Positions 8,779 through 32,073 are shown, counted from the first letter of the stretch. The stretch: DNA of 36,070 bases from Jimgerdemannia flammicorona (GCA_003990765.1 RBNJ01000230.1:1-36070), one strand, 5' to 3'. Numbers and translations are program-made. Notes: generated from the letters alone by a model not told the origin.

Positions 8779-9831
8779 AAGCAACAAGTCTCACTGAAAA
8801 TTGAGCTCAAGTTATGCTCATTTTTAAAGGTCTAGTTAAAGGAAAAGAAGTTTAAGTACTTATAGACAATAGAGCTACAGAGAACTTTATCAACCAGAAC
8901 CTCATCAAAAACCTCAAGATTCTTACTAAGCCTGTACATAAGAATGATGATATACATAGTTACTACAGATAGTATACTATATCCTATAGAGTCAATTACA
9001 GCCAAGCTATCTATCAAGATTCAGAAATATTAGAAATAAGTAGACTTCAAGATTGCACTATTAGAAGATCATGATCTGATCTTAGAAAACCCTGGCTTAC
9101 TAAATATAATCTGAATATTGATTAGTATAAGAATGAAGTTACTTTACTTCAAGATAGACAAGTCTATGAATAAGACCTCTGTTGTAATACTGTTAGCAAT
9201 ATAGTATAAAAAAACACTCAAAAAGACAGTATATATCTTTATTGCAATAGTTTGTTCTAAGAAATAAGACAAAAAGTTATCAATTAATAAAAGTGTCAAG
9301 TTACTACTTAAAGAATTCAAGGATGTCTTTTCAGACAAGCTACTTGGTTTATAAGAAGTTGATCATAAAATTGAACTAACTTCAGGAGCTATACTATCTA
9401 AGAAGTATATGTACTATATATTACCTCTCAAAATTGAAGCAGTCAAGAAGGAACTAGAAGAATTACTTATATGAGAAGTCATTCAATCAAGCAAATCTCC
9501 CTATGACTCATCAGTCTTATTTGTCAAAAAGAAGAATAGTACTCTATGAATATATATAGACTACTGTATACTCAACAAGGTTAAGAACTGATATCTATTA
9601 CCCTTGATTGATCAAATCTTTGATACTCTCAAGAATGCTAAGTACTTTACCAAGTTAGACCTTATGTTGGGTTATTATCAAATCTGAATCAAGTTAGAAG
9701 ATATTTCTAAGACAATATTTATAACCTCCTTTAGACTCTACAAATTTCTAGTTCTAGTATTTGGTCTTATCAATATATCTACTATATTACAGACTCTTAT
9801 GAACAAGATATTTAAGGACTAACTATTTATT

Positions 9832-9846
9832 TTCTTATTAGTATAT
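9832..9846 (+). repeat. LINE2 TSD, left copy (right copy 15602-15616)
   Basis: ttcttattagtatat vs ttcttattgatatat; both derive from TTCTTATTGGTATAT (F-L-L-V-Y) by one G>A each. Confidence 0.8.
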
Positions 9847-9959
9847 ATATATATTTTATATAGTCACTCAGACTTTCATTTATTACTACTCAATCTATAA
9901 ATAATATATATTTACCTACAGCCTCTCAGCCAATGTCCCTTGGATCTCTCTCCCTACTC

Positions 9960-12900
9960 TCCATCTCTCTCTGCTAAAGGACAACTCAACCACCCACCAC
10001 CTAAACCCTCCTGCCACTCTTCTTGCAAATACATTTACCAGATTCTGATGATCCCCTCCACTCAATCCCCACCCTCTTTACCAACCATTCAAAATGTCAA
10101 GTATCAACCATTCCCAACATACTATCCTAACTCCAACTGCAACTCACTGGCCCCTCTCAAAGACATGAAGCCAATGACTGATCAGCCTTACTCAAATTAC
10201 TAGAGCCCAACCCAAGGTCAGCTATTCATTTCTGATTCTACTCACTAATCTTTGCCAGAGGTCCCTCCATCTCTCTCCTTCTCTCCCCACCAGGGGCCAC
10301 AATCTCAGTCTACTAGTAATACTATACCAAAACTCCTCCAAAACTTCACACATCCCTAGCCAATGTTCAGGCATTTGTACCACTTCCCCCTCCTGGCCAA
10401 TGTCCATACATTTCTTATACTCAAATGTGCCATCTACCACCAAGTATTCTGACTGATAGTTCAGTATCATATTCCACCTTAGGAACCTCCACTATACCAT
10501 CTAGAACTTGGGGGGAAGTCACTACATCATCTGCTTGCTCCAATACCAAATACTATTTCAGTCACACTCCTTGCCAATCTCCACCCTTTGCTATGCTCTA
10601 GGCCACACATCTTCCCTGAGCCCCCACATATATTTTATCTCATTGCTAAGCTGAAAATCCTCCACCAATGAACCTTCCAGCAGTAGCTGGTCCTATCTCT
10701 ACATCTGTGGTCTCCAGTTCTCCTCCCTCTTATCATCTCTCTACCAAAGTCTAATTCTTCTTGCACTATCCACCACTATCTACCAAAAGTCTTTATAATG
10801 CATCTTCCTGCTCTCATCCATGGCCACCATTACAAGCAGATCACCAGTCACTCCACAAGGAGAATACTAGACTTCCCACATAAGTGGTATCCACTCTTGA
10901 CCTCTTAACTTGTTTGCTCTTTTCAGCCACCAAGCTCTCAGACAATATAGGTACTTGGTAAAGTCTATCAAGCCTAGCCCACCTCTGTCAACAGGCAGAG
11001 TCAGAACCTCCCAGCCTATCTGACTTTGCTGCCTGACCCAAATCCATGATCTTACTATCTTCAGAAGTTGCCTGACCACCTATACCAGAAAGTCTAGATG
11101 ATACCTCACATATCACAGCTTTGGCAGCCAATACACATTCAGCACTATCACCCTTCTTGCTAAGGATATATACTGACCACCTCATCTTAAGAGAATATTT
11201 CCCCATACTAGTAGCCACTGTTCCTACCATATATGGAGTAGAAGGGACCCATATACCAAAAAGTATATCCTCAAGTACCAGACCAGTTCTCCTACTGGAA
11301 CCACTGTTTCAATTATGTCACTACCAACTATTCTACTATCAAGCACCAGAGTCTCATATTTGTACTAGTTAAGTTGAGCACCTGAGCCTCTCTCATACTA
11401 TTTTACAGTCCTTCTTAATTTCTCCACATCTTCTAATGAACTCAGTCTAACTACCATATTATCTACAAAAGCCCCAACCTTCTAGTTAATCCCCAGAATA
11501 TCCAAACCTCCAATTTGATACCAGATTCTATCCAATAGAGGCTCTAAGAAAAGGGCATATAGGATGGGTAACAGAGGATCCCCTTGTAGCACCCCATGAC
11601 CTAGTAGAAAAGTCACACCCCTGTGCCCATTCACTACTAATACTGCTTGACTGTTCTCCAATAGACTGATTAATGACCTCCTGAACTCTGGGGGAACTCC
11701 TACATACTTTAGCACTCTCTCCAGCCAGACTCTCCTCACCCTGTCATACACCTTCTCCTGATCCAGAAACACTAACCAGCCATCAACCCCAGCCATCTGA
11801 GTCCCTTCAATCACTCCATGGACTCAGGCAGTTCTATCTCAGATCAACTGACCACTAACAAATCCCCTCTGCTCCACTCTTAGTACCTACTGAGTGATCT
11901 TCTGCAGCCTAGTCATCAAGATCTTTGTCACTAGCTTATAGTCCATATTCAGGAGCATGATTAGTTTCCAGTTCTTCCAATCTTCTCTCCTCTCCTTGTT
12001 CTTATAGAGTAAAGAGACCAGCTCTAGGTGCTGGCCCCCCATCCAAGTTCCAGATTGAAAGACCTTATCACTCATTGCTATCATCTCCTCCAATATCCCC
12101 TCCACCCCCACTATCTTCTTCCAAAAATCCCAGGAAAGCTCATCCTCTCCTAGAGCTATCCCCATACTTATTGAAGATAAGACCTTGTGAACTTCCTCCC
12201 CCTGCACTGGATCTCCTAGTATCTCCAAGTCCAGTGCTAGGTCTGAATCCAATCTTCCAACTGCTGTTCAATGTTCAGGGTATCCTCACCTCTCTCTTCA
12301 TCACTCTATAAATTCCTCTAGCAAGTTCTCAGCAATCCCAAAATCATAAGAGTCCTTGCCACCATCTCTCTATCCTCATCCAAAATACTATTCTACTGCT
12401 GTCTAGTTCTCTGAGCTTGGAGCAACTATAAAAGAAATCTAGTAGGTCTCTCCTCCTCCTCCAATCTCTGCCACTGCAACCTTGCTACTATCCCCTTCAG
12501 CTGAACCTCTTTCTCCATTCATAGCACTTTCTTTAGATCATCAACTTCTTTTTGTATCTGCAGAATTTGCCAGTTGGCTGCCCTCCAATCATTCAGTGAC
12601 CCCATTTACCTCTCCAGAAGCACTGCTAACCTCTGTGAAGCTCATTATACTTACTGCCTCTGCTGAGCACTTCTTCCTTTCCCTGCCTCTCTCTAGTATC
12701 TCTGAGCACTTGACTTCAGCTGCCACTAGTGATCCCTATTCACTAACCCCTGCTCCTGTCAACTACCAATTATCTCAATAACCTCCATGCTACCTATAAG
12801 GAACCATCCTCCAACAAAGAAGAATTCAGTTGTCAATATCCAGGCCTATCTCCATATCTCCCAAATCTTTCACTCCCTATCAGACCCCAGTGATCCAACC

Positions 12901-13569
12901 ATGGGCACTAAACCACCTCTAGTATGTCCCAGATACCTACTCTCCAGCACTCTGCCATTAATACTCAGTTGATCCTGGAGCCCAGCCCTGCCACCCAGTG
13001 AGTATAAATTTAGCAATCCACCCAAAACTGTTGCCCCAAGTCAACCAAGAAGCTCAACCTCTCAATCTCTATCCAGTCACCAACTTGCCACTTCTGCCTC
13101 TCATTCCTCTCCTACCATCAGTTATATTTATCCCATTATCATATACTATATTGAAATCATCCCCCAGGCAATCAATCCCCACCTTACCCATAACACCAGC
13201 CTCTCTCAAGTCTCTGATCCAATCTACATATTCCCCCCTCTCAGCTGAGCAATAATACAATCCAATAGTCAAAGAGTTTCACCCAGGCCTCTTCTATACT
13301 CCCCACACCAACCTACTCCCCCAATGTCCAATATCTCCAATGTCTCCCATCTCCTTTTGAACCAGAATAGCCACCTGCCTAGTCCATATAGCTGCCTGAC
13401 CCCATTTCCTAGTCCAGTCCTATAAGTCTATATCTGCCTCATATTGTACATTCTGTAGTAGGAAGAGATCTGCATCCAGACCCTTCAACCAGCCAAAGAT
13501 ATTCCTTCACCATGTCACTTCCCTCAACCTATTTATATTTAAAGAAAAGATTCTAGTTGTACTATTTAT
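9960..13569 (-). pseudogene. LINE2 ORF2 (APE-RT-CCHC), many stops
   Basis: Decayed start (M)NSTTRIFSLN at 13569; DDFN, FLDQEKVYD, QGDPLLP, GAFVDNMV, PEHWLGMCEV. The 3' boundary is approximate. Confidence 0.88.
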
Positions 13570-13599
13570 ATTGAATAATATTTGATATAGAGATCTCAG

Positions 13600-15430
13600 T
13601 CTAGAATTCCATACTCCTCCTATTTCCATCTAGATCCAAGTACTACTCCACCTCCAACTCATCTTCCATTACAGCCTGAGCATCTAATATCTCTAAGATT
13701 TCTTGATACTCTGCCTCATCTACTATCTCAAATTCTGCCCAATAGTCCATACATACCACCCTCCACTTCTCTAATCCCTTTCTTGAACCCTACAAGTATA
13801 CTGCTTAATTATTTGCAATCTCTCAAAGTTTCTTCTCTCTCTGACCATCTACTTGATATTCAACTAACTCCAGGAGCACTACTAGGATCTCATTCCTAAC
13901 CTTTCTTGGCACCTCCTCTTTCTGGAGAATTTCCTCCCAGTGCCTATTGCTCATGATCCAGAAGTCCTCTCTCCTCAGCTTCTCAGCTACCACCCCCTCC
14001 AGAGTCTTCTATAGCCACTTCTCCTCATCTACTGCCTCTGCAACACCCTGGGCAACCCCTTTGACCTCCACCACAGGGTCCACTAAGGTGCTCCTCCTCA
14101 CTGATTCATCTCACTCCTCCTCTAGTACATCCTATAATTCCTTCTTACCACTTGCCCCATAAGAGACATCATACTGAGGGTGTACTTCCTCACTCATTTT
14201 GGCATTCTCCATTATGCTGCCCTGTCTCTCCTCACCTAAACTCTCTTGGGCCACACCTTGGACCATCCTGCTCTCTCCAGCCCAGGCACTCTCCCTCAAT
14301 CTGGCTCTACCTTCTTTGGCACTGCTGTCTGCTACACCTTCTCCCAATTTTGTCAGAAGCTCCTTCTGGATATGCCTCTCCTACATCTTCTCCTAGGCCA
14401 CCCATTCTATCCTGATCTTCTTATCATCCACAATCTCCACTACTATCTTCACCTCATACTTCTTCCAAGCCAATCTTCTCCTCTCTATGGCTCCTGCCAG
14501 ATCCTTAAGAGTCTCCAGCAAGTCCTCCTCTTCCTCCAGCATCCCTTTTACCTATGAGACTTTGCATTCCACCAGTCCCCACTTAAGAGTCACTGGTCAG
14601 TCTCTTGTCTTCCCCATATTCTTCTTTTCAGCTAGCCTCACCTGGACATCTATGTATTCTGTCTGGAGTTCAGTATCCCAAGACTCTGAACCCAATATCG
14701 ATAATCTCTCCATACTCCTTGACCATCTCCACAATCAACTTCCTGGCCCTCTCTCTCAACACTGTAGGAAGATTCAACACCATCAACTACACCACTCAGG
14801 GGTCCCAGTACATATATCTTACCATAGGAACTACTACTCCATCTACTTCTACCCCCTTCTCCACAGTCTCTAGCATCAATACCTCTGCCTCAAATTCAAT
14901 CTCAACTTCTTCTTTCCCCTTCAAGAACTTCACCAAAGCTGCCCCCTTCACCTCCTGTACCACCAGCCCCAAAATCATTCTTGTAGTCACTGCTAAGCCT
15001 CAAAAGTACAATGTGATGATGAATTCTGACCTCAAGATTTTGAGTAATGGTGCTGACACCATACTAGTCATACTATCTACCAGGTCCCCAGGCCTCATGC
15101 CTTCTCTCTATTCTGATCTGCCAATAACCATCACATCTGGATTTTTTTTCCAGATCCTCAGTCATAGCTCTATCAGCAGTCACATCACTAGTCCCTACTC
15201 CCCCCCCCTCCCTACTACCTGACTCTCCTATGGAGGCCCCTTTCTGTCTCTCAGCTGAAGCTGTTGACATCTTCCCCAGTCTCAACCAACTATCCAGACC
15301 AGATACTATTCTCCCCATCCTGACCTTGTTGGCAAAGATTGCCCTCCCCTCTCCTTGTTGTCTCAATTCACCCCTCCCTCCACCACCAGTGCCATGACCA
15401 ACCATAGGAGGCTCCAGCATCTCCAAACTG
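13600..15430 (-). pseudogene. LINE2 ORF1, decayed
   Basis: Fragments 14796-14990 and 15073-15426 align to LINE1 ORF1. Boundaries are approximate. Confidence 0.8.
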
Positions 15431-15621
15431 TCTCTTTGCCTCCTTCCAACTTGCTGCTAGCTGAAGACACTGCTGCCCCCCTGACTGATATGCTCACTAG
15501 TATATTCATTGCTGTCTATGTTAATAGTCTCCTTTTATTAAAAACATTGTAGAAAGTATTGTCTGAGTCTTGTGTCACCTTAATATTACTGGTGAAAGGT
15601 ATTCTTATTGATATATCTTGA

Positions 15622-17678
15622 TATAAGAGGATTACTTATTAGAGTAACCATTATATAGTTCTGGAAGGGGTTTTCTGGAAGTTCTGGATATTCTAAAAGA
15701 CCATTTCCTTTAGGTTAAGATCAATTTCATATGGAGTATATCCTCTATACTTATTGATTTTAAGATTGGATTGATGTCTCAACCAAAGTCCTTATTCAGA
15801 CTAGTTCTGGATGTTTAGGATTTTCTGTATTTCAGGAAGTTCAAGAAACTAAGACCAGCTTAGTTGAATTGGCATGTTACTACAGACAATACCTAATTAG
15901 GAAATTTCATAATGGGGTTAGGAGTGGGACCTAACAGGGAGTGGATTTACTTAAGAGTGGTTTATAGATTATTAAATAGGTTTATTCACTATTTATGATA
16001 TTGCTATACTAGGAGTAGTTATATAAAGAGATATTGGGAAAGTGTTCAGGAGTTATATTCAGATTGTTCTGTATATTCAAGTCTGAGATTCTGAGGTCTA
16101 GAGAAGGGGGTATTTATACTAATAGGAGGCTATCTGGACTATGCTAATATGAATGTAGCACTTAGTGCCTTACTGAGTTGGAATGTAGTCACATAGTACA
16201 AGTGTGATCTGATATATCAAGAGATCATTTAACTGCTGAGTCAGTTCATAGTCATATCATATGTATAAGGCTAATCTAACTATACTAATAACTGTTAAGC
16301 TATCTATAGATTTAGATACTGTCTGAGTAGTTTTTGATGACATTACTATCAATGATATCATCTCTGAAGAAGTAGTTATCTAGAAAGAGTTGTTCTCAGA
16401 TTACTTCTCTCTATTTGCTCAAGTAATAATATATTGGAACCTCATCACTATTCCACAGGATAGCATCATCTACCTCATATACTGAGTATAGAGTTGGTGA
16501 GTAAAGTAGGAGTGCATTGTCTTTGCTTTCATCAGATTTACTATCTGTATATCTTCTATAAGTTATAGCAATATATATTACTGGGTTGTAGTAAGCTAGC
16601 AGCTGTTGTTCATGTCACTTGTACTCAGATGGTAGGGTTGTTAGTTCAATCTTAAGGGTTGTCTGGAGGTATAGATTGTATTCTTTAGTCTCTTCATTAT
16701 AGTTGAAGTAATTGGGAGTAAATGCAGATTGGTACTCATGCTAGTAGTCATCATTTCAATAGGTCTTGTAGGTAGTTATGAACTATTATAAGTTCATTGG
16801 CAATATCAGTGGAGTGATCAGAATTGGTAGAGATTCTTGACTAGAGATCATATTGATATCAGAGAGATCATTATCTTCTGCTTTATCATCATCAAATCAG
16901 ATTATATCATAGACATCCTTCATGGTATATCCAACTTGATTATAAAAAAAAATGTGGTTGTTGGGATACAGGAAGGTTCTGTCTATAGTTTGAATATACT
17001 TGATATACTTGTGGTTGAGTTCTTGTACCATATCATCAATTTGGCTATAGGACAGAGTGGTAATCATTTCAGTGGTAGTAACTTGGAGGTAGGAAATAAA
17101 GGTGCTATACTTATAGAAGAGTTCTCAGTGTTTGCAGGTAATGAGTTTCTGGTGTTGGGACATCTGAGTAATATCTGTATCATGGTAGTGTTTGACCATA
17201 TCTTCCAGGAGATATGTATCTGATCTGGTAGTAGCTTGAGATTTATCTGATTCAGTGGACTTCATTGAGCATGTTTAGGGCATTCTATTGGGCTTCCATA
17301 AAGTAGAGAGGTGCAAGACTATGAATATTCATGAGGGGTAGAGAGAGTGTGGCTTGGTTGACAATGGTATTCCAAATATTAGTGCAGATGTAATTGTAGA
17401 TTTCAGTGATCATATTGTATATATATTCAAAAGTTAGGATTGTTTATTTGGTTTGTTGTAGTTCTCTATTTCAATATGTCTAAATGCTTAGTATATATAT
17501 ATTTGGTCCTGATTGATAAGATTTTGTTTATATAAATCTTATATTCTATGACTTTGAGTTGACTCAGCTTTGTGCACTATGACTTCAGTTTGACTCAGCT
17601 TCATGATCTTGTATGTGATTTCTGGATTTGTTCAGAGGTTGCATATGATTTCTGTAGCTTGAAGGTTGTGTACTTACA
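15622..17678 (-). repeat. B 3' LTR (about 2057 bp)
   Basis: Colinear with 30024-32073. Ends T(G>A)TAAG...CTTACA; - strand TATA box near 16111. Confidence 0.93.
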
Positions 17679-17693
17679 ACTATCCCCTTTTTA
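17679..17693 (-). other. polypurine tract of B
   Basis: The - strand reads TAAAAAGGGGATAGT directly before the LTR TGTAAG. Confidence 0.85.
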
Positions 17694-18154
17694 GCTTTTA
17701 ACATCCTCATTGAGGTTTTCTAATTTAATCTAGTGTTGTTATACTGTTTGGATGATCAAAAGTCTAGTAATATTCATTTTTCTCAGAAAGTAGCATGCTT
17801 GTAGGACAGTTGCCTAACACATTGGATTCATACATTAAAGAGTCATATATTTAATACCATGTACCAGAAGTGATTCTGATATCATTCACTGCTGGAGAAT
17901 TTTCTCTAAGGAATCTTCTTAAATATCTATACCTCATTTTCCATCAGTGGTATAGGGAGAATAGGCTGGCTTTCAGTTTTGTTGTTTTTCTAGAGGGTCA
18001 GTATTCTTTTGTCTTGACTTACTAAGTTTTTGATTTTATTCATAATAGTTATAAGGGTACTTAATATTCAGGAGGAGTAATATATAGTATAGGACTAATT
18101 AGTATTAGAGTATTTAGGTTTCAGTTGTTCAAAGAATCATATTCTTGAACTAGG

Positions 18155-18290
18155 TCAGTAGCATTCTGGAGATTGGTTTTGGATTCCTATATTACATCAT
18201 GGATTAGATAACCTTTCTATTTGACAAGGTATTCTGGATAGTTCTTGTGGCTGTATTTATTGAGGATTTGTTCAACTTCATATTCTTCTT
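18155..18290 (-). pseudogene. chromodomain at the integrase C-terminus of B
   Basis: EEYEVEQILNK...EYLVK*KGY...DVI*ESKTNLQNA matches the YEVE.I...YLVKWKGY...TWEP..NL consensus. Confidence 0.9.
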
Positions 18291-20460
18291 GGTCATTAAT
18301 AATGATAGATGCAGGTGGTTTTATAGTTTGGTTTGAGAATAGCTTGTTATAATTTTCATTGTATCACTTGAGATATTGGACATTGAAGACTGGGTAAATC
18401 TTAATGGTATCTGATAGTACCAATTTGTAGGAAGTTGGAGAGACTTGTGTGATGACTTCGAATGATCCAATAAATTTGCTCTTCAGCTTTGTAGATGGTT
18501 AGTACTTGAAGTTATCAACTTAGTATCCTCAGATATCTAGTAGGACTTTTTCTCTGATATCAAATATTTCTCCTTATCAGTACTGATTAATATACTGTGA
18601 CTATTGTTCTTGAGCTTGGGATAAATTCTCAATTATGATCTGACTTAGATTGTGTATTCAGAGTAGGAATTCTTCAATAGCTTTGACAGTGGAGGATTCA
18701 TCAGTGGTTCAGATAAGTGTCAGAGAGGTGTTTGGGTTTTGTTCTATATTGGTGAAGAACAGAGTCATTCCAAGAGAGGCTTGCTTGCTGTTGTTATAGG
18801 CAAACTTGACTGTAGTAAGGTATTCATGCCAATTATCTTGTCTGTAGGAAATATAGTTCCTTAGTATTTATTCCAGAGTTTAGTTCATTATTTTAGTTTA
18901 GCTATCAGTTTCAGAGTAAAAGGCTGTAGATAGTATAAGTTTCATTCCAAGGTGTGAATGGAGGGTTTTTCAAAAGTGGCTGGTGAATTTTGGATCATAG
19001 TCACTAATAATGATCTTGGGAAGACCATGATAGTTGAAGATATTGTCAAACAAGAGTATATCAATTTTGGATACTGTTGCAGTGGTAGTAGTAGGTATAA
19101 AATAGGCTTATTTGCTAAGATAGTCTATGAAAACAACAATTGCATCTTTCTTATTCTTGGTTTGGGGTAGTTATACAATGAAGTCCATAGAGATTTATTT
19201 CCAATTAGCAGATAGTACTGAGATAGGGTAAAGTAGGCCAGGTTTTGCTAGTGTTGAGAACTTATTACATTGGTAAGTATTATAGGAAGTGATGTAGATC
19301 TTTAGCTGATCTGTCATATGGGGCCAATAGAAGTTTTGGGAAATAACTTTATAGTATTTGTCAAATTCTAAATGTCTGGCTGTAGGGGTATTATGACATT
19401 CAAATAGGATGGTTCTTGATTGTTTGGAACATACAATCTGTCCTTATAGTAGATAGTATTGTTCTTTAGTTAGTATTGATGATATTGAGTATATTTGTCA
19501 ATATCATCACTGCTCAGGATTTTGTAGAGTACTTGAGCTTCTTTATCATCAATATATGCTGTGATGATTTATTCTATGATAGAGTTGGTAACCAAGGTGA
19601 GAGTTTGGATAACCTCTTTGATTGATAGTCTAGAGATTGTATCAGCAATAATATTTTCCTTACTAGGGTAATACTGGATTTCATAGTTAAAGTTAGTGAG
19701 GACTTTCATCCATCTGGCTTGCTTTTGGAAAAGGGTAGCCTGGGTCTTGATATTGACTAATGACTTGTGATCTATCAATATAGTGAAGTATGCTCCTTCA
19801 AGATAGAGTTGCTATTTAATCAGGGTGTCTATGATGGCTAACATTTCCTTCTCATGGGTTATATACATAGTTGATTTTGGCATCATGAGTAATAGGCCAC
19901 AGGGTGTCCTTCTTGTATGAGCACTGCTCCAAGAGCTAGGTCAGAGGTATCAGTAGTAACTTTATAAGGTAGAGCAGGGTTTGCTGCTTGAAGTACTGGG
20001 GTAGTTATTAAGGTATCTTTTAGTGCTTGAAAGGCTGTATCTTGTTTAGGTCTCCAATTTACAAGATTATTGAAGTCTCTTTCTTACTTTATAGTTTAAG
20101 GCTGTTCTTCTTTTTTACTATGCTTGGTCATTTGGGTGAGAGCAGTAGTGATCTTGGAGAAGTTTGTAACAAATCACCAGTAATAATTTACTAGTTCCAG
20201 GAATGACTAGAGGTATTTTAGCTTCTTGGGTCTGGGTCAATCCTTGATTGCAGAGATTTTGCTGGGGTCTACTTTGATTCCATTTAGCATGACAATTTAT
20301 CTAAGGAATTGAATTTCCTTCAGGAGGAATTCACATTTGCTGAGTTTTGTAAAGAGTTTGTTTTCTTGGAGTTTCAGTAGTACTAGTTCAAGGTGTTTAA
20401 GATATTCCTCCAGGGTTTTGCTGAAGACCAGGATGTCATCAATATAGACAACAACAAATT
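18291..20460 (-). pseudogene. B pol, 3' part: RT from VYIDD, RNase H, integrase
   Basis: FVVVYIDDILVFS (20421-20458), KLSKCEF, RNase H VTTDTSDLALGAVL (about 19920-19965), integrase HNTPTARH, DPKFTSHF, STAFYSETD. Confidence 0.9.
20446..20460 (+). repeat. LINE3 TSD, left copy (right copy 26282-26296)
   Basis: agacaacaacaaatt vs agacaataacaaatt (14/15). Confidence 0.9.
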
Positions 20461-20656
20461 GGACTTCTTTCCCTCAAACCATACCAGTCAAAAGGTCTGG
20501 GTGAAAATTAGATCTCTATAGTATAGGAGAAGAGAGGCCATCAGTATCCCAAGATTGGGTGTGCTAGAAGTGGTGAGAGAAGAGGAGTCTAATGGTGTCA
20601 AGTTGCTCCAATCTCAACTACAGTTTTTAAGAATTCAAGGTTTCCATTATTTCATG

Positions 20657-20870
20657 GGCCAGATGGTGTGATGCAGACTCTGGGAGCCACTAGCAATAAT
20701 TCAAGAAGATGAAGAGTCTTTCTTTCAGTAATGTGGCTGGCTTTGTAGTGAGCATCTAACTCACTAGCATGCTCTGGTGGACTAGGAGATGTGGGTTAGG
20801 CCCTTAGACTTTCTTTCACTTAGGGGAGACTCTCACTGCATTTTCAAGACATAGAGGTATATCAGGAGAT
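20657..20870 (+). repeat. 214-bp direct duplication of target flanking the PLE (second copy 25310-25523)
   Basis: Ungapped match with 10 differences by my count, all transitions. Confidence 0.93.
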
Positions 20871-21325
20871 GAGGAGGAAGAAGGCCCAGCGAGAGCCAAG
20901 AGAGCGAACCCAGAGCCAGTGTCAAAGTGAATGGAAGACATGTGGAAAGGTGTATATAAGGGAGATGAACAAAGAACATAACCAAATTTGCATCAGCCAT
21001 TTATTGCCATGTAAAAATATGGTCCTTATATACAAAATATGACATCCCAAAAGGAAGGATGCACCACAACTTGGGGCAAACTGAATTAGGAACCACATGA
21101 CCACCAGAGATAGGTGGAGATAAAGGGAGAGCCAATCCCAGTTGCAGGATAAAAATCACAAACAAACACAAATAAAACAAATCCAAATCGAGATTAAAAA
21201 ACATCCGCAGATCCTGGAGGGGTGAGTATGAGCAAGGGGTGAGGCTGAAATGGAGCGAGCCATAGTGAGCCTGAGCGAAGCAAGGGGCCAAAGGTAGCAG
21301 AGGAGAGCAGAGTAAGGCCGAGACC

Positions 21326-23437
21326 CTAGAGTGAGCGCGAGACCCCAGAGGGGGCAAGGATGTTTTTTAATCCTCTCCAGCAGAGCTGAAGGCACCAGAA
21401 GGTGATGAAAACGCAAAACGAGAGTGATGGATTAAAGAAGAAATAGAAGGAAGACGTGAATGAGCAATCAGAGGGTGTCAAGAGAGATGAAAGTCCATAG
21501 CATGAAAGAGAAGAGTGCAGGACAGTATCAGGGCATTGAGCAACATCAAATGGTATGACAAGAATCAGGGGTGGGAAAGAAGAGGGGATATAGAGAGGGT
21601 AAGGGGGGAGGGAGGGAAGAGAGGGGGGGTAAAGAGGAGAGAGAAGGGAAGAGCAAACAACAGACCATTCAACAGAAGCAAGCAGATTGCGAATGATAGA
21701 AATAGAGTAGGTACGATGATGGACCACAAAGTTGCCAAGAACCTGAACAGCAGACACCCAATCAGAATGATGGGAGCAGCATAGTACAAGATGATGAGCC
21801 TCACCATAAATATATTCAAGAAGAGTGCAATGAGGATGATTGGACAAGAAGTCAGGGAACTGTTAGGAACAGGGAAAACAGGAATAAACAACAGTTTGGA
21901 AAGGAGAAAGAGAAATGGAAAGGTCCAAAAAGGGGATACTAGTCATACCATACACCCAGATAATAGAATGGTGGGGAGGGTAGATGCCCAGGAACATACT
22001 AGGGATATCAATATCAGCAACAGTGAAGACAATAAAGTCATCAATGTATCGGCAAAAGAAGATATCCCCAGCCCAGAATGCAATGGAAAGAGGTGAAGTA
22101 ATATCATGTAACACATACAATTCATGGGCCAGGCCAACGAGGTTGGCAAGGGTGGGGGCACAATTCATTCCCATGGCAATATCAGAAGTCTGGTGAAAGG
22201 AGCCAAGGGCTGACTCAAAATAATTAGAGCCACAGACAAGGAGCATAAGCTCAACAATGGAAGCCAGTGAAACTGGGGAATCCAAAGGAAAAACAATAGA
22301 ACCCAAGAAGCAAAGGCAATCATTGATCTTATCAAAATGAATAGCAGTATAAAAGGAGGAGAAGTCACCAGAGGCCAAATGGGAAAAATGGTGAATAGGC
22401 ACAATGGTGGAGCAGAGAAGGGCAAGCTCCTGAGTATCATGAAGAATAGTATACTCAGGCCCAAGACAGTGTTGTAAGAGAGCCATCCAGGAGAGAAAGA
22501 AGTGGGATAACCACTTTGAAATCTCAGTGGTAGGAGAACTGTAAGTAGCTGTAATGGGACGCCAAGCCAAAATAGGCTTGTGAACTTTGGGAAGAGTATA
22601 GAAAACTGGAAGAGAGATATCTAGAGAGGACAAAGAGTCCTGAAAGAAGTTAAAAATGGGGTTTGCGAATAGAGAGTCTGAATGCGATCTGGCATGAGCC
22701 AGAGAAACCCAAAGAAGAGTGAGAATCTCATCCAATTCAAGAGTACTAGGCTCATAAGCTGTGGCTCGAAGGAGGGCAGAAAGGCCATCAAGGTAGAGTG
22801 ACTTTGGAATAAGTGTAAAACCCTGATTCTTATTAGTGACTGTGAGCAAATGCATAGGCAATTGCTTGACCAATTTAAGTGTGGTATGTACAGCACAGTC
22901 TGAAACCAAACAAGAGTGAGCATGTCCAGGAATGGACAGTGAGCAGGCCATGTCGAGGAATATGCAGTGTGAAGAGACATTGGAAGGGAGGACCCAATTG
23001 CTAGGAACAAAATAGCAAGAGGGCATCTCACCACGATCTTGAAAGAAAATGGCAAGGTCAAGAGTATGACAAAAACATATGAGATGAGCCAGATCGGTGA
23101 AAGTGAATTGTGAGGGAGTCACAGGAAAAATGAAGTGAGGACCCAAGGATAAGGCAAAGACTTGAAGGGGAGAAAGAGGGCAGTCAGCCAGAGAAAAAGG
23201 AGGAGACAAAAGAGCTCCAAGAGAAGAGTAAACCTGAAAGTTCAGGACAAGCAACTGGGAAAGGCAAAGGGGGGACAATATGAGGAACCACTCAGGGCAC
23301 ACCAGAAGTGATGATGGAATCCGAGAAGGGACAGGGACACTGGGGGAGAACCACACCAAGGGGAAGTTTAAGAGCAGGAGGCCTTCCCCTTCCCTCTGAC
23401 TTTTTTTGAAGGTAGTGAGCCTGATGAATGGGAGCAC
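21326..23437 (-). pseudogene. PLE reverse transcriptase (one in-frame TAA at 21863-21865)
   Basis: TNKNQG, FYTLPKVHK, WRPI, GDFSSFYT, IAMGMNCAPTLANL, RYIDD, PFLDL, then in the same frame the thumb region SNHP...IYGEAH...CS. No GIY-YIG follows. Confidence 0.9.
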
Positions 23438-24564
23438 ACCCTGTCAGAGTGCCAGACCTTGCAGCCACAGGCTTTCATGCAGCCCTTACATTCGGGGGTA
23501 TGGGTGGAGGAGGCAGAGGAGGAACCAGCAGAGGAGGTCAAAGGCAAGCGAGTAGCCGAAGGGACAGTAGTATGAGGAACACTACCATGAGGACAGATGG
23601 ACTTGGCTGGGTGCCAGTAGGCATGGTAGAGGCAACCAGAGCAGACAGCATAAGGCCAGGCCCTGACAGGGCGAGAACCAAGTTGGTGGCCATGTTTGGG
23701 GGCTGGGGGAATGGAGGAGGAAGCCTTGGTGGGGGAGAGAGACCGGAAAGAGGCCGACGAAGCTTGATTGAGCTTGGCAGGGGTCTTGGTGGGGGTCTTG
23801 GAGGGGGCCTTGGTAGCAGCAGCAGTGAAGGAACAAACCTCAGCATGAGCAGCAGTGCGAGCTTCAGCATGAATAGCCTCAGAGACCAAAACCTCAGGGG
23901 AGGCAGGCAAGGGAGCAGTGGCAGTGGTGCGAGCAGCAGCAGCAGCACATGATGTCTCCTACTCGTGAAGGCGAGCAACAAAAGAGGTGCTGGTAAGGAG
24001 AAAACGACACACAGCATCGATGTCGGTAGTGACAGAAGGAACATCTTAGATGGTGAAGTCACAGAAAGGGGCAGCATCTGAAAGATGAGAGGAGGCGAAG
24101 ACCATGAAGGCAGCACAGGTATGGTGGAAGGAGGCAGAAGCGGTGGTAGTGGAAGTGGCAGCAGTGGCAGCACAAACCTCTTCAGAGAGGGCTTGGCAGT
24201 GGGCCTCAGGAAGAACGGAGTAGCGGATGGCGAGCAGAGTGACAATGTCGATGTCACAGTGGAGATGAGCCTCCTTGGCAGAGAGGGCAAGAACTGACTG
24301 GAACTGGGAGAGGAGTGGATGACCAGAGAGACAAAGGTCCAAGAGGAGGGAAAGAATGGTGGACAAGATGTAGGTCTCGAATGAGACAGTGGTGGGGGTG
24401 AAGGCAGGGGGAGGAGGAGGAAGAGCCTCATCCATGAGCTCATCGATGAGGACAGAGGCCCTGAGGGCAGGTGGTACAGCAGAGGAGGAAAAAGGTCCAG
24501 CAGGAGCCAAGGGAGCGAATCCAGAGCCAGTGTCAAAGCGAATAGAAGACATGTGGAAAGGCAT
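23368..24564 (-). pseudogene. putative PLE ORF1 with Cys/His clusters
   Basis: Track ORFs 24046-24564 and 23368-23910 share a frame. CSGC...HPAKSIC and CKGC...HSDRVC motifs; differences between repeat copies include third-position changes in the MSSIRFDTG frame. Confidence 0.55.
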
Positions 24565-26282
24565 ATATAAGGGGGATGAATAAAGAATGTAACCGAATTT
24601 GCATCAGCCATTTATTGCCATGTAAAAACATGGTCCTTATATATAAAATATGATATCCCAAAAGGGAGGACATGCCATAACTCAGGGTGAACTGAATTAG
24701 GAACCACATGACTGCCGGAGATAGGCAGAGATAAAGGGGGAGCCAATCCCAGTTGTAGGATAAAAATCACAAACAAACACAAACAAAACAAATCCAAATC
24801 AAGATTAAAAAACATCCACAGACCCCGGAGGGGTGAGCATGAGCAAGGGGTGAGGCTGAAACAGAGTGAGCCATAGTGAGCCCAAGCGAAGCGAGGGGCC
24901 GAAGGCAGCAGAGGGAAGCAGAGTAAGGCCAAGACCCCGGAGCAAGTGCAAGACCCTGGAGGGGGCAAAGATGTTTTTTAATCTCGATTTGGATTTGTTT
25001 TGTTTGTGTTTGTTTGTGATTTTTATCCTGCAACTGGGATTGGCTCCCCCTTTATCTCCACCTATCTCCGGCAGTCATGTGGTTCCTAATTTGGTTTGCC
25101 CTGAGTTGTGGCACATCCTCCCTTTTGAGATGTCATATTTTGTATATAAGGACCACATTTTTACGTGGCAATAAATAGCTGATGTATATTCAGTTACATT
25201 CTTTGTTTGTCCCCCTTATACATGCCTTTCTACATGTCTTCCATTCGCTTTGACACTGGCTCTGGGTTCGCTCCCTTAGCTCCCACTGGGCCTTCTTCCT
25301 CCCCTCCTTGGCCAGATGGTGTGATGCAGACTCTGGGAGCCACTGGCAACAATTCAAGAAGATGAAGAGTCTTTCTTTCAGTAATGTGGCTGGCTTTATG
25401 GTGAGCATCTAACTCACTAGTATGCTCTGGTGGACTAGGGGATGTGGGTTAGGCCCTTAGACTTTCTTTCACTTAGAGGAGACTCTCACTGCATCTTCAA
25501 GGCATAGAGGTATATTAGGAGATTTTGGAAGGTGCTCAGAGGATTTTGGAAGGTGCAGCTGATGATTGGCCAAGGTGGATGAGGTGATTTCAATACATGG
25601 TGTGATAGTGACTAGTGATTGGTAGATATCAGATGGTGCAATTCAAGATGGCAGTAACAATTAGGCCAGGTAATTGGTCAGTAATAGTGTGATGATCAGC
25701 AGGAGGATCAGTAGGGTGACTACTTCACTACTTTGGGGAGGGGAGAGCCAGTAGGTCAGGTGCATGTTGCAGAGGTACTTAAGGTACTGGGGTTGCATCC
25801 AGTGGCCCTTCTGGGGCAAGGTCAGATATGATGGTAGTATCACTTGAGGTACTAGTGTCACAAGCCAGATGGTGACTTCTGACTCAGAGCTGGGCAGAGA
25901 GAGTCCATTTGTTAAGTATGTAGGTTGGCACTGAGCAGCCAAGGTAGGGTGGAGTAACTTATTATTGGGGAAATCTCAGGCCTACACACCACTTCTTTTT
26001 GCTTTGCAATTATATATATTATTTGTATGAGAGAACTGGTTGTGGCCTTGGTGGGGGCTTTGTTATCAGTAAGGAGGGAGAGGTGAGAGTGACTCAGAGC
26101 AGAGAGAACCAGGTATCAGCCACCTTGGTCTTGCCAAGGTTAGGTATCAGGTCATTTAAGGCTACTCTGTTCAGGGCCTGACCCCACTTATTTTCTTGTC
26201 AGGAAATCCAGGGGATGTTTTCCTGCTGTTCACTTTATACTATATTCTGAATAAATAAGTATGGAAAAAAAAAAAAAAAAAA

Positions 26283-27400
26283 GACAATAACAAATTTGTC
26301 TAGATATGGATGTAGGATGGTATTCATCAGTGTCTGGAAGATTGTAGGGGCATTAGTTGAGTCAAAGAGTATAACCAGAAACTTGAAATATCCATAGCAA
26401 GTTCAGAAGGCAGTCTTATAGATGTCTTCTTCTTTCATAGCAATTTGTCAATAACTATTTCACAGATCAAAAGAGCTCATAAATTGTGAGTTGGTAAGCC
26501 TATCAAATATTTAATTGATTCAGGATAGTGGGAAACAGTTCTTAATAGTCTATTTATTGAGGTCTTGATAATCAATACATATTTACAGGTCTCCTCCTTT
26601 CTTGACAACAAAGAGGACTGGGGCACCATAGAGTGATACACTAGGTCTAATGAATCCTTGTTCTAGGAGTTCATTGATTTCTTTCTTGAGTGCATCAATT
26701 TCTCTCAGAGATATAATAGATTGACTTGAAGGCAGATTTGACATCTGGGATAGTCTTGATAGTATGGTCTACTACTTATTTAGATGGTAGATCTTTTAGG
26801 AGTTTCTTTAGAAATATATCTTGGAATTTCTGGAATAGGGGTCTGACATGGCTGTCAACTTTGGAAAAGTCTTCTTCAGAGTTTTTGGGTTCTTCTTTGG
26901 ATGGTCAGATAGAGATAGCAAAGAGAGGGCATTTTTTGGCCAATTTCTTGAGTTGTAGCTTGTTGATGTGAGTGATCTTTGGACCAGAGTCACTAGAATT
27001 GAGAGGGTCCTTTTTACCTTACAGTTTGAAGTTATAGTATTCTTTCTTAATAGTTAGAGAATGGTTTACCCAATCAATCATGAGGTTTTCTTATTTTAAT
27101 TATAGAGTTCTAAGAATGATCTTATTGTCAGAAAGTGGTACAATCTGGAGTATAACATATACTTAGTAGTCACTAATTCAGAAGAGTAGGTTGCAAACTT
27201 TCTTGCTAATAATATAGAAGATTCCATCAGCAGTAACAAGTGCTTGAGTCTGTTGTACCAGAGAGGTCAGGATCTTGAGTCTGTTGGCTATTTCTTCATT
27301 GATGAAGTTGCCTAAGGCACTACTGTTTATCATAATCTTGATAGGTGCTCAGTTGACAAAAGCTTAAAGTGTAAGTAGTTTGTCTGATCCAATGCTAGTA
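26283..27400 (-). pseudogene. B protease and RT N-terminal half
   Basis: IMINSSALGNFI (from DSGA.GNFI) at about 27300-27340; [45 protein letters not shown] ending at the LINE3 tail. Confidence 0.9.
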
Positions 27401-27597
27401 ATTTTAGTTGTAGGAGCTTTCCTTCTGTTGGTTCTTCTTTGGGCCAGTTCATTGATATAAGAGAAGCAATCATTAATTATTCAAGAAGAGTATATTCTAA
27501 TGCCATGGGGGTATCAGCCACTTGGTACAAATCCATCTTCAATTTTCTTATAGAATTGTTCTTTCTTACTTACAGTAGATTGGGCTAGCACCTTGTT

Positions 27598-28010
27598 TGA
27601 TAAGCCAAATCCTTTAGATCCTTGGATGGTGGGCAGTAGTTCAGAGACTTCTTTGACTATCAGAGTTGATTCAATTTTCTTAAATAGGATCTAGACAATA
27701 TAAAAACCAATAGAGATCTTGAAGGGTGTCCAACTATGGTTTTAGATGAGGACAATTATTTCTCTTCATCAATGACTTCTTCTTCTACTGAGAGTTCTTT
27801 CAGTGCTAGGCTGCTGTAGCAATATATTCTTCCAATATATCCTTCAGGGATTTGGATGCTGATCTCTATATAGACTTGCTTGACTTCTCAGTTAGAAACT
27901 GTAGCTTCTTCAGCTGTATATAGGTCATAACCAGCTGCTTTTTGACTTCCCTTGGTTGGAGCCTTAGCAGTTGGCCTTAACTTGACAAAGTCTACTGTCT
28001 TGGTGGTCAG
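27598..28010 (-). pseudogene. dUTPase domain of Gypsy B
   Basis: FVKLRPTAKAPTKGSQKAAGYDLY (I), IPEGYIGRIYCYSSLA (II), EVID (III), TIQGSKGFGLS (V). Confidence 0.92.
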
Positions 28011-28059
28011 ATTGTTAAGATAGTACAGAGTAGTAATAGTTGCTCATATTGCTGTTCAG

Positions 28060-29950
28060 GGGTTTCAGTTGGGGCAGACACTGGTCATATGTTCTGTCTT
28101 TTGGCAATAGAAGCATGCTCTGCTTTTTTGGAGTTCATTTCTTTCTCTTTTAGTGAGTTTCTTGAAGATACTTAGCTAAGTGAGTTCAGAATTTCAGAGG
28201 TATCCATGAGGTGGATGTGGAGGGAGCTTTGGGTGTTTCATGCTTGGATTCTTCTTTCTTGGTCTAAGTCTTTTTTTTGTTGTTGAATTGTCTTTGAGGC
28301 AGAATTGGTCCAGCTGTTAGGATTTGCTTGACCATAGTCTTGATTCTTGCCAGGCACTACTGTTGGTGGTTATAACCAACTGGGCATTCTTGTTCTCAGA
28401 TTTTTCTTATAAACCATTCAGGTAGTATATCAAATAAATAGTCTGCTCTTGTACCATTTCATGCTTCATCATTGGTAATATATCCTAGGCCAATAGTATT
28501 CAGGAGTAACTTAAGTTTTGTATAGAAGGTTTTGAATTCCTTCTTGCTATGTATATCAAATTTGAGGTTGCAGAGTTTTACTTGAGATTCAGCAATTAGA
28601 GTTTCACTGCAGTATTGAGCAATTATGAGTTGTTTGAGTCTAGGGGCTACAGGGTGGTCTCTATATCCTGGGGCATTATTTGCTGCATTCTGGTCAACTA
28701 CTGCAGGTCAGATATTCTATATGAGGGATTTTTCAGAAAGGGTTCACCACTATTCTTCAGCAGGTCCTTAGAAGAATATGACAACTCAGCAGACATAGGC
28801 TATAGTGGTAGTGAAGAGTTGTTCCAGAGTGTGGTTTTGATTGTTTGTCAGAAGGCAGTCAGCAACTCACTTGTTGATCCATTGATTGGCTTCAAAGTTG
28901 ATATCAACTACACTAATAAAGCTCTGGACTTCTTGTGCAGTACCATTGAAGGTAAGTAGACTCAGACTTTTTGTTGGTCTGGTTTGTTCAGCTAAAGCAG
29001 TAATAGTTACTGCTATTATGGCCACCTGTACTATAAGGTCTAGAATCTGTTGATTTGCTATGTCATTTACTGGAGGTGGTTAGACTACTGATAGTAGTAT
29101 TACTGGTACTACCTGAGGTACTGGTGCAGAGTGTGGTGGTGTTCTTTGAGTCTGTATAAGTTGCTGGAGTAACTATTGTGGGTCTGGAGTAAGAGCTTGA
29201 TAGATAGCTATCTGTTGCTGTATAGGTGTGTTTTGTCCTGATAGAGATATATCTCATTCAGTAGTATATCCAGGATCAAATTCACTGAGATACTCCTCCT
29301 CTTCTTCAGTTTAGTCCCTGTATAATTGAGTTTGCTCAGCATTAAAGTAGATAGAATTGGTTGTATATTAGATTTCAGATGGGCTTAATTCAAAAGCTGG
29401 TTCTGATTCAATACTGGTCTCAGTTTCAGATAAGATTGTAGCTAGGCCTGCTTCTGGTTTGGGGTTAGATTGTTGACAGAGAGTTTCTCTGACTTCTTCT
29501 TTAAGAATATAGTAGGTCTTGCAATTCTGAAAGTGGTAGTATAAGGTGGTCTTAGTTCTGGTATAGTGATAGTTAGTAGAGTTGAGCTACTTGGCTATGA
29601 AGGCTTGAGCTTCATAAGGAACTAAGACTAGAAAGTCTGCTGCTGGTTGTCCTAGATCACTCAGATTTGTGAAGCTGACAAAACTCTTGTTGAGGAGAGT
29701 AAAGAAGGTTTCTATAAGACCTTCTTCATCTTGACTTGCAGGGTGTAGAGCAAGGAGTTCAGTGTATAGGGTTTCACCTATTTGCTGATTTAATTGGAGT
29801 ACTTCTTTTTGTAAATGAAGTCTGTCTCACTTGTTGCAGGTATGGAGGTTAAATTGTCCTTATATGTCAGGTTCAATTCTTTCCAGATTGTCAGATGGTT
29901 CAGAATAAATTCCAGTTCAGAGGTTAGGCTTTATACCAACTTGTAGGAAT
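28060..29950 (-). pseudogene. B gag, decayed, with CX2CX4HX4C knuckle
   Basis: ACFYCQKTEHMTSVCP at about 28073-28118; lies between the PBS and the dUTPase. The 5' boundary is approximate. Confidence 0.75.
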
Positions 29951-30009
29951 TCTCAGAAGAGTTTATAGTGGGGTAAGGAAGTGTCTTGAAGTAGAATTAG
30001 ATTGTAAAC

Positions 30010-30020
30010 TACTGCTATCA
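30010..30020 (-). other. PBS-like site of B
   Basis: TGATAGCAGTA (probably decayed TGGTAGC..) 3 nt after the 5' LTR end. The primer was not identified. Confidence 0.5.
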
Positions 30021-30023
30021 AGT

Positions 30024-32073
30024 TGTAAGAGGGTTACTTATTAGGGTAACTGTTACATAGTTCTGGAAGGGTTTTTCTGGAAGTTCTGAATATTCTGAAA
30101 GACTTTTTTCTTTAAGTCAAGATCAATTTTGTATAGAGTACATCCTCTATCTTTATTGATTTCAAGATTGGATTAACATCTCAACCAAAGTCCTTATTTG
30201 AACTAGTTCTAGATATTCAGGATTTTCTGTATTTCAGGAAGTTCAAGAAACTAAGACCAGCTTAGTTGAATCAGCATATCACTGCAGATAATATCCAATT
30301 AGAAAATTTCATAATGGGGTTAGGAGTGAGACCTAATGTGGAGTGGATTTACTTAAGAGTGGTTTATAGATTATTAAATAAATTTATTCACTATTTATGA
30401 TATTGCTATACTAGAAGTAGTTGTGTAAAGAGATATTAGAGAAGTGTTCAAAAGTTGTATTTAGATTGTTCTGTATGTTCAAGCCTAAGATTCTGAGGTC
30501 TGAGAGAGGGGGTATTTATACTAATAGGAGGCTATCTGAACTATGCTAAATATAGATATAGCACTTAGTGCCTTACTGAGTTAGAATATAGTTATGTAGT
30601 ATGAGTGTGATCTGATATATCAAGAGATCATCTGACTACTAAGTTAGTTCACAGTTACATCATATAAAGTTAATATAACTATACTAATAACTGCTAAGCT
30701 ATCTATAGATTTAAATGCTGTCTGGGTATTCTTCAATGATATTACCATTGATGATATCATCTCTGAAAAAGTAGTCATCTAGAAAGAGTTGTTCTCAGAT
30801 TACTTCTCCCTGTTCACTCAAGTAATAATATATTGGGACCTTGTCACTATTCCACAGAATAGCATCATCTATCTCATATTCTGAGTATGGAGTTGGTGAG
30901 TAAAGTAGGAGTACATCATCTTCACTTTCATTGGATTCACTGTCTGCATACCTTCTATAAGTTATAGCACTATATGTTGCTGGGCTATAGTAAGCTGGCA
31001 ACTGTTGTTCATGTCACTTATACTCAGGTGGTAGGGTTATTAGTTTGATCTTGAGGGTTGTCTGGAGATATAGATTGTATTCTCTGGTCTCTTTATTATA
31101 GTTGAAGTAATCAAGAGTGAATATAGATTGATACTTATACCAGTAGTCATTATCTCAATAGGTCTCATAGGTAGTTATGAACTGTGTAAGTTCATTGGCA
31201 ATATCAGTGGAGTGATCAGGGTTGGTAGGGATCCTTGGCTAGAGGTCATATCAGCATCAGAGGGATTGTTATCTTCTGCTTCATTATTGTTAAATTAGAT
31301 TATATTGTAGACATCCTTTATGGTATATCCAACTTGGGGCATTTGTAGGATATGGTCATTAGGATGTAGGAAGGTTCTGTCTGTAGTTTGAATATACTTG
31401 ATATACTTGTAGTTGAGTTCTTGTATCATATTGTTGATTTGGCCATAGGACAGGGTGGCAACCATTTTGATAGTAGTGACTTGGAGGCAGAGAATAAAGG
31501 TGCTGTACTCATAGAAGAGTTCTTAGTATTTGCAGATAATGAGTTTCTGGTGTTGGGACATCTGGATAATATCCATATCATGGTGGTGTTTGACCATATC
31601 TTTCAGGAGGTATCCAATCTAGTAGTAGCTTGAGATTTATCTGATTTAGTAGGCTTTGTTGAGTATGTTCAGAGTATTCTATTGGGCTTTTATGAAGTAG
31701 AGAGGTGCAAGACTATGGATATTCATGAGGGGCAGAGGGAGTGTGGCTCAGTTGACAATGGCATTCCAAATATCAGTTCAGATGCAGTTGTAGATTTCAG
31801 TGGTCATGTTTATATATATATTCAAGAGTTGAAGTTGTTTGTTTGGTTTGTTGTGGTTCTCTGTTTCAATATGTCTAAATGCTTGGTATATATATATTCA
31901 GTCCTGATTGGTAAGATTCCATTTGTATAAATCTTATATTTTATAACTTTGAGTTGACTCAGCTTTATATGCTATGACTTCAGTTTGACTCAGCTTTATA
32001 ATATTGCATGTGATTTCCAGATTTGTTCAGAGGTTACATGTGATTTTGGTGGCTTGAAGGTTGTACACTTATA
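30024..32073 (-). repeat. B 5' LTR (about 2050 bp)
   Basis: TGTAAG...CTTA(C>T)A; colinear with 15622-17678. Confidence 0.93.
30711..31807 (-). pseudogene. LTR-encoded accessory ORF(s) of B, unknown function (second copy about 16310-17413)
   Basis: ATG at 31807 (MTTEIYNCI...) opens about 210 codons whose stops are all C>T-derivable; at least one is a sense codon (CAG) in the other LTR. A second Tyr/acidic frame runs about 31230-30711. Confidence 0.65.

Follow-up and report, generated by a model that had tools for sequence, protein, structure and literature searches.

Some families of long interspersed nuclear elements (LINEs) insert at a fixed target, and the targets described so far comprise rRNA, snRNA and tRNA genes, microsatellites, telomeres and a single DNA transposon. 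Tx1L of Xenopus laevis is a stringent LINE of the apurinic/apyrimidinic endonuclease (APE) type that inserts into the DNA transposon Tx1D (PMC1950540), while R1 and R2 both occupy 28S rDNA, with target specificity described for R1Bm (PMC1950540) and for R2 (PMC4640811). Families of the Utopia group show weak specificity for U2 snRNA genes (PMC4640811), and L1 is involved in the formation of retrogenes and of short interspersed nuclear elements (SINEs) (PMC3747384). Here, we describe a 36-kb stretch of DNA from Jimgerdemannia flammicorona (GCA_003990765.1, RBNJ01000230.1:1-36070; 36,070 nucleotides, hereafter the window), a nested stack of eukaryotic retroelements. In it, three independent insertions lie within approximately 7 bp of the YxDD motif of the reverse transcriptase (RT) of two Ty3/Gypsy hosts, Gypsy A and Gypsy B; one of the three was made by an integrase. 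The inserts are LINE2 in Gypsy A, a poly(A)-tailed retrocopy in Gypsy B, and Gypsy B itself, which sits in Gypsy A. We tentatively read the YxDD-coding DNA as a preferred target of one resident L1-like machinery.

The locus resembles Tx1L in that an APE-type LINE of the L1 group, primed from a nick, has entered a multicopy target that is itself a mobile element. It differs from Tx1L in the target, which here is DNA coding for the catalytic motif of a retrotransposon, and in a specificity that is putative and at best partial, as a second LINE of the window (LINE1) lies elsewhere. As with R1 and R2, unrelated elements converge on a short conserved multicopy sequence, here a LINE, a poly(A) retrocopy and a long terminal repeat (LTR) element. 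The R1 and R2 cases, however, have been demonstrated on hundreds of copies and by biochemistry, against three events in one window, and the target here is itself a parasite and no host gene. No report of a LINE targeting YxDD or other RT-coding DNA was found in the literature, a weak negative given that subscription journals and Repbase Reports were mostly outside the coverage of the search.

LINE2 lies antisense in Gypsy A between the 15-mers ttcttattagtatat and ttcttattgatatat (table 1), which are identical at 13 of 15 positions, both mismatches being G/A; the target-site duplication measures 13-15 bp. The left piece of Gypsy A translates up to the junction as ...NKIFKD*LFIFLLVY and the right repeat as FLLIYLD. 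To the right of the duplication only CTTGA precedes the LTR of Gypsy B, which begins at 15622, and Gypsy A restarts at 32074 with CTTGA TGATATCCTGATC..., translated as LDDILISSTTKEE. Junction, repeats and reading frame agree in placing LINE2 at the Tyr codon of the Gypsy A YxDD motif with a duplication of about 15 bp, as a first-pass annotation of this stretch had proposed. The uninterrupted Gypsy A string given in that annotation is correct only once Gypsy B (15622-32073) is also removed, a step that it had left implicit, because GAT GAT ATC CTG ATC starts at 32079.

In target-primed reverse transcription, the cDNA grows from the nicked target strand. As LINE2 lies on the minus strand, its primer is the plus strand, which is the sense strand of Gypsy A. 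The 3' end of LINE2 reads AATAAA...GTGACTA (the end of the body was set by alignment with LINE1), and is followed by the tail TATAAAATATATAT instead of poly(A). This degenerate tail allows the nick to be placed anywhere from GTA^TAT to TAT^CTT. An earlier statement that both poly(A) junctions fall in the Tyr codon therefore holds for the positions, including the ambiguity that it acknowledged, and fails for the nature of the LINE2 tail.

The second insert, previously annotated as 'LINE3', interrupts Gypsy B between the 15-mers agacaacaacaaatt and agacaataacaaatt, identical at 14 of 15 positions. The two pieces of Gypsy B translate as ...LDKFVIV (TNAPTIFQTLMNTILHPYLDKFVIV) and FVVVYIDDILVFSKTLEEYLKHLEL. 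Pfam was run on stop-free open reading frames (ORFs) of at least 45 aa, covering all 141 on the minus strand and 70 of 146 on the plus strand, the other 76 being antisense to LINE1 and LINE2. It matched RVT_1 to the two pieces over profile positions 113-152 and 148-201, an overlap of about five codons, as expected from a duplication of that length. The split at KFVVV-Y and IDD, with its duplication of about 15 bp, is borne out by these observations. Both duplications are real, and both Gypsy hosts read through seamlessly with the inserts taken out.

The tail of this insert lies on the plus strand, so that the primer is the minus strand, the sense strand of Gypsy B; T18 directly follows its end, ...GTTGTTGTCT. 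With the ambiguous A assigned to the target, the nick reads GTCT^AT, and with it assigned to the tail, GTC^TAT; both place it in or at the Tyr codon. Both poly(A)-type nicks are thus on the Gypsy sense strand and in or at the Tyr codon of YxDD. The strings downstream, ATCTTGATGATATCCTGATCT in Gypsy A and ATATTGATGACATCCTGGTCT in Gypsy B, agree at 18 of 21 positions, in keeping with the shared downstream target claimed before; the RTs of the two hosts are 47% identical over 134 aligned residues. The antisense orientation applies to LINE2 relative to Gypsy A and to the whole retrocopy relative to Gypsy B, whereas the RT within the retrocopy lies on the same strand as that of Gypsy B.

That RT is Penelope-like, lies on the minus strand and is the only one in the insert, which has no LINE ORFs and is not a LINE. 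Its outer shell (20461-20656 and 25524-26264) contains AATAAA at 26250-26255, is followed by an A18 tail at 26265-26282, and has no similarity to LINE1, LINE2 or any other sequence in the window. No LINE domain was present in the 46 plus-strand ORFs scanned (at least 45 aa, 6299-26394, with the 41 over LINE2, 9905-15549, excluded), and tblastn with five LINE ORF2 homologues (P0009, P0011, P0012, P0014 and P0015) found nothing in 20461-26281, matching only LINE1 and LINE2. We interpret it as the retrocopy of a polyadenylated RNA that carries an antisense Penelope-like element, which may have arrived before or after retroposition. The AATAAA signal, the A18 tail and the lack of a LINE ORF fit movement in trans. 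In its poly(A), AATAAA, 14-15-bp duplication and lack of a LINE ORF, the retrocopy resembles the processed pseudogenes and SINEs moved by L1, from which it differs in that the copied RNA bears a whole antisense Penelope-like element. The 'two different LINEs' of the annotation are therefore reduced to one LINE and a non-coding poly(A) retrocopy, and since the latter probably moved in trans, no more than one LINE machinery need have been involved.

The third event is the insertion of Gypsy B, antisense, into the YLDD motif of Gypsy A. It is flanked on both sides by CTTGA, which spans the Leu codon of YLDD together with positions 1 and 2 of the Asp codon that comes next. The LTRs of Gypsy B, approximately 2 kb each, are 85.9% identical, and the whole nested unit of 16.5 kb directly adjoins the LINE2 duplication, leaving a piece of Gypsy A of 20 bases (15602-15621) between LINE2 and Gypsy B. 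The left edge of the 5-bp stagger, at 15616/15617, is possibly the same bond as the LINE2 nick. With Gypsy B counted as a third event, the coincidence of sites is real and stronger than had been appreciated.

How readily such a coincidence might arise depends on what the enzymes require. Motifs were counted on both strands in the visible Gypsy A (15,956 nt) and in Gypsy B (21,232 nt). The two hosts contain 1824 and 2105 T^A steps, respectively, of which 104 and 78 have 9 or more T among the 15 bases upstream; there are 100 and 113 occurrences of TATAT, 41 and 23 of TTTTA (the canonical L1-type site), and 21 and 31 of GT[AC]TAT. TTTT/A sites were thus available in both hosts, yet neither poly(A)-type insertion used one; GT(A/C)T^AT was used instead. 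The joint chance of both insertions at YxDD is approximately 1/21 x 1/31 if the 6-mer GT[AC]TAT is required, and approximately 1/1824 x 1/2105 if a T^A step is the only requirement. The insertion of Gypsy B contributes another factor, of about 10-20 bp in about 8 kb.

LINE1 and LINE2 are assigned by homology to the L1-superfamily APE LINEs. RVT_1 matches LINE1 at 881-2131 (E=1.9e-26) and LINE2 at 11485-11823 (E=2.2e-06), and the best relative of the LINE1 RT in the PDB is human L1 ORF2p (3.7e-30), ahead of R2 (1.5e-14). Of 73 database matches, the closest is only 33-37% identical, and many have APE, RVT_1 and zf-RVT domains. In tblastn, two homologues combining PF03372 and PF00078 (P0009 and P0011) align from residue 6-7 over 3709-263 and 13551-13144. 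GDFN and SDH motifs can be recognized by eye in P0004; the direct Pfam match to APE is weak (E=0.12), and the APE piece yielded no meaningful relative in the PDB. In LINE2, the APE remnant spans 12806-13551 and the RT 10753-11985. 'Transposon TX1' is the source-given name of one 28%-identical match, the only hint of a possible place in the Tx1 clade.

The two LINEs are colinear over their full length at 62% nucleotide identity (57% amino acid identity in the RT), with homologous 5' and 3' ends and the same style of AATAAA plus tail at the 3' end; the LINE1 5' end was set at 5865 by homology with LINE2. The poly(A) tail of LINE1 (T7 at 1-7, i.e. A7 or more) is cut by the edge of the window, and its nick site is therefore not visible. 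LINE1 can be read in one frame from 5803 to 283; eight TAG/TGA stops interrupt this frame, which is free of frameshifts. Its 682-aa ORF (3758-5803, minus strand) is in frame with the APE-RT ORF (263-3709), with only TAG at 3757 and 3646 between them, and LINE1 may originally have encoded one fused polyprotein. The sense strands of both LINEs are strongly G-rich (in LINE1, G 40%, C 16%, GC skew approximately 0.4-0.5), which gives rise to long spurious antisense ORFs of up to 325 aa. A metagenome scan with the 20-nt 3' end of LINE1 returned 13 loci, all chance matches of 20-28 nt.

When four pieces of Gypsy RT (two of which were in a wrong frame) were compared by tblastn, none matched the 5' flank of LINE1 (gctcagagagatacttaaagg... 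/ gctcagagagatacttaaaggttcaag...), so that LINE1 is, as annotated, a relative of LINE2 with a non-RT flank. A YxDD-like site hidden in this flank (TCTTGAAAGATTTCTGA, at about 5896) was considered and rejected; the resemblance is loose, would require three indels and a duplication of 30 bp, and falls in no RT frame. Within the window, one of the two family members with a readable flank is thus at YxDD. Variation of this kind has a parallel in Utopia, where the strength of specificity differs by family, which would allow LINE2 at YxDD and LINE1 elsewhere (PMC4640811); Utopia differs in encoding a restriction-like endonuclease, not APE, and in having a host RNA gene as its target.

The DNA surrounding these sites has changed since the insertions. 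Transitions make up 269 of the 288 aligned differences between the LTRs of Gypsy B, against 19 transversions; the context is CpA-to-TpA for 188 of these transitions and CpG for none. Such a pattern is the signature of repeat-induced point mutation (RIP), and, together with the stops in LINE1, it indicates that the host is probably a RIP-competent fungus.

We propose that one resident L1-superfamily APE/RT machinery, that of the LINE1/LINE2 family, would have made both poly(A)-type insertions, copying its own RNA in cis to give LINE2 and, in trans, a poly(A) RNA to give the Gypsy B insert. Each event began with a sense-strand nick in or at the Tyr codon and left a duplication of 13-15 bp. The machinery would prefer, without requiring, GT(A/C)T^AT(A/C)TTGATGA(C/T)ATCCTG, a target that every Ty3/Gypsy RT gene would offer in many copies. 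We favour YxDD as a preferred, non-exclusive target because the two events share strand and codon, the 13-15-bp stagger, a non-canonical site and 18 of 21 bases; we hold this reading tentatively, as a serious possibility that falls short of being probable. The sequence itself shows the junctions, the duplications, the strand and position of the nicks and the nature of the inserts; from the features that the two events share, we infer a common enzyme for both, a preference residing in that enzyme, and a reach of this preference beyond the two events.

Several observations weigh against this proposal. There are only two poly(A)-type events, at a site picked post hoc from a very large scan. In addition to the lack of Gypsy RT similarity in its flank, LINE1 lacks at its 5' end the duplication with (L/I)DDIL codons after it that would be expected of a strictly YxDD-specific family. 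A second exact copy of TATATTGATGA on the sense (minus) strand of Gypsy B, at 19546-19556, is empty, though it is without the T-rich upstream context, and the YIDD-coding DNA of the Penelope-like element itself matches at 16 of 21 positions and is unoccupied. Owing to its ambiguous tail, the LINE2 nick may sit as much as 2 nt 3', or else 1 nt 5', of the Gypsy B nick. Gypsy B, 0-5 bp away in the Leu-Asp codons of Gypsy A, owes its position to an integrase, so that the specificity of a LINE endonuclease does not account for it; its insertion is either coincidental or an indication that something else makes the site attractive. If Gypsy B is older than LINE2, LINE2 met CTTGA followed by an LTR and never the shared 21-mer. 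Finally, RIP-like mutation after insertion means that the present TA-rich sequence is not exactly what the enzymes met. The targeting interpretation of the first-pass annotation is therefore retained in its site coincidence, while its two LINEs are lost, and the non-RT flank of LINE1 and the integrase-made third event count against it.

The rival that survives best is coincidence, in which three insertions at one motif within nested TA-rich repeats were simply noticed afterwards. The tiny sample and the post hoc selection speak for it, as do the position of LINE1 and the empty second copy of the 11-mer core, and nesting of transposable elements (TEs) within TEs is common in RIP-affected fungal genomes, where one survey reported no obvious insertion preference (PMC4522978). 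We nevertheless consider pure coincidence unlikely in view of the joint chances calculated above for either requirement, of Gypsy B landing within 5 bp (some 10-20 bp out of about 8 kb), and of two nicks on the same strand in the same codon.

Alternatively, YxDD-coding DNA could be a structural hotspot independent of lineage, being flexible, TpA-rich and, in Gypsy A, partly palindromic (GATAT...ATATC). This would explain why two classes of enzyme acted at the same few bases, with the LINE2 nick and the Gypsy B cut perhaps at one bond (15616/15617). The L1 endonuclease is described as recognizing the structure of a T-tract/A junction and not its bases (PMC1950540), and position-specific hotspots of nested insertion exist in human TEs, where insertions favour specific positions and orientations (Levy, Schwartz and Ast 2010, PMC2836564). 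The human hotspots differ in resting on hundreds of thousands of events, and none is reported at an RT catalytic motif in the available part of that paper (PMC2836564). With 100 and 113 TATAT runs in the two hosts, flexibility alone does not single out the site; the palindrome is weak in Gypsy B, and TA richness stems partly from RIP-like mutation after insertion. We regard a hotspot as unlikely.

Stringent YxDD specificity evolved by one or two LINE lineages, after the manner of R1/R2 or Tx1L, is improbable, as 'LINE3' is no LINE, LINE1 lies away from YxDD and the insertion of Gypsy B itself is left unexplained, even though the two nicks have strand and codon in common, the DNA downstream of them agrees at 18 of 21 bases, the LINEs are APE-type members of the L1 superfamily with homologues carrying APE, RVT_1 and zf-RVT, and transposons are among the targets of specific LINEs (PMC4640811).

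Table 1. Features of the window, with positions counted from its first nucleotide.
Feature	Position	Strand	Basis or remark
LINE1	1..5865	-	L1-superfamily APE+RT LINE by RVT_1, tblastn and PDB homology
Gypsy A left part, N-terminal half of RT	9232..9846	+	Translation ends ...FLLVY; element extends further left
LINE2 target-site duplication, left copy	9832..9846		Codons FLLVY
LINE2, decayed relative of LINE1	9847..15601	-	Homology with LINE1, RVT_1, tblastn
LINE2 target-site duplication, right copy	15602..15616		Codons FLLIY
CTTGA, left copy of Gypsy B 5-bp duplication	15617..15621
Gypsy B, complete LTR element	15622..32073	-	LTRs 15622-17678 and 30024-32073; Pfam domains
Poly(A)-insert duplication, left copy	20446..20460		Reads AATTTGTTGTTGTCT on the - strand: (K)FVVV plus T of the Tyr codon
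Poly(A)-tailed retrocopy (earlier 'LINE3')	20461..26282	+	Interrupts Gypsy B; AATAAA and A18
Penelope-like element within retrocopy	20657..25523	-	RT ORF, thumb-like ORF, terminal repeats
Poly(A)-insert duplication, right copy	26282..26296
CTTGA, right copy of Gypsy B duplication	32074..32078
Gypsy A resumes	32079..33288	+	(L)DDILISSTTKEE...; RNase H 32461-32691; integrase zinc domain 33148-33288

Both hosts are of the Ty3/Gypsy type by the order of their Pfam domains. Gypsy A has RT, RNase H and integrase on the plus strand and continues beyond 33288 towards the end of the window, within which no second LTR of this element was found. Gypsy B has RVT_1, RT_RNaseH(_2) and Integrase_H2C2 in order on the minus strand, with the integrase at 19198-19443, RNase H at 19572-20083 and the RT broken at 20446/26282. 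In Gypsy B, the interval that separates the protease-like region from gag contains a weak match to dUTPase (27891-28043, minus strand, E=0.0012, below the Pfam cut-off). To the left of the Gypsy A coding region, in a stretch of 35-44% GC, 7023-7086 forms a tandem array of about six copies of the 9-bp unit TAACTCAGA; the interval 5866-8000 around it may be an LTR of Gypsy A or belong to a different element.

Described Penelope-like elements comprise an RT with a DKN motif, a thumb and repeats (PMC13159263). The unit at 20657-25523 is assigned to this group by motifs, protein clusters and repeats. Its RT ORF (P0001; 526 aa, 21866-23443, minus strand) is accompanied by a thumb-like ORF (21329-21862) and an upstream ORF (23541-24611). 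NKNQG, LPKVHK...RPI, GDFSSFY, AMG..AP and RYIDDFIVF are visible by eye in P0001, as is SNHP in the ORF that follows (P0006). The best relative of P0001 is a 406-aa JGI protein (P0007, 50% identical); the nearest Atlas clusters, with a score of 0.95, carry HTH_animal, DUF8422 and RVT_1 and are commonest in Rotifera. The Pfam match of this RT to RVT_1 reaches only E=0.015, and no relative was found in the PDB. Direct repeats relate 20657-21372 to 24482-24983 plus 25310-25523 (88-95% identity), and an inverted repeat of 333 bp pairs 24484-24816 with 25302-24970 (90% identity). Both copies of the repeat stop at the same base, so that the unit can be delimited, with 20657 as its 3' end and 25523 as its outer limit.

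No GIY-YIG domain was matched by Pfam in any minus-strand ORF, and no hammerhead was found by Rfam, either at the gathering threshold over the whole window or at E<=1 over 20400-26350; no other Rfam family reached the gathering threshold in the window, and a search for telomere repeats near the element gave 0 matches. In lacking all three features the element resembles the endonuclease-deficient subclass that has been described (PMC8557442). It sits in a poly(A) retrocopy, not at a chromosome end, and its sense strand is strongly pyrimidine-rich (C 32%, T 35%).

Beyond a preference of one machinery, the YxDD DNA of Ty3/Gypsy RTs could conceivably serve, in the manner of the R1/R2 site in 28S rDNA, as a dedicated landing pad for an L1-like LINE lineage, its poly(A) RNAs and possibly an LTR element, each insertion killing the catalytic site of a competitor and sparing host genes; we think this quite doubtful. 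The present evidence consists of three events in one window. If YxDD targeting is true, it would represent a new class of LINE target, in which one parasite disables another, and would make available a naturally occurring endonuclease that recognizes a defined sequence of approximately 20 bp. If the site is instead a structural hotspot, it would bear on how nested repeat clusters grow.

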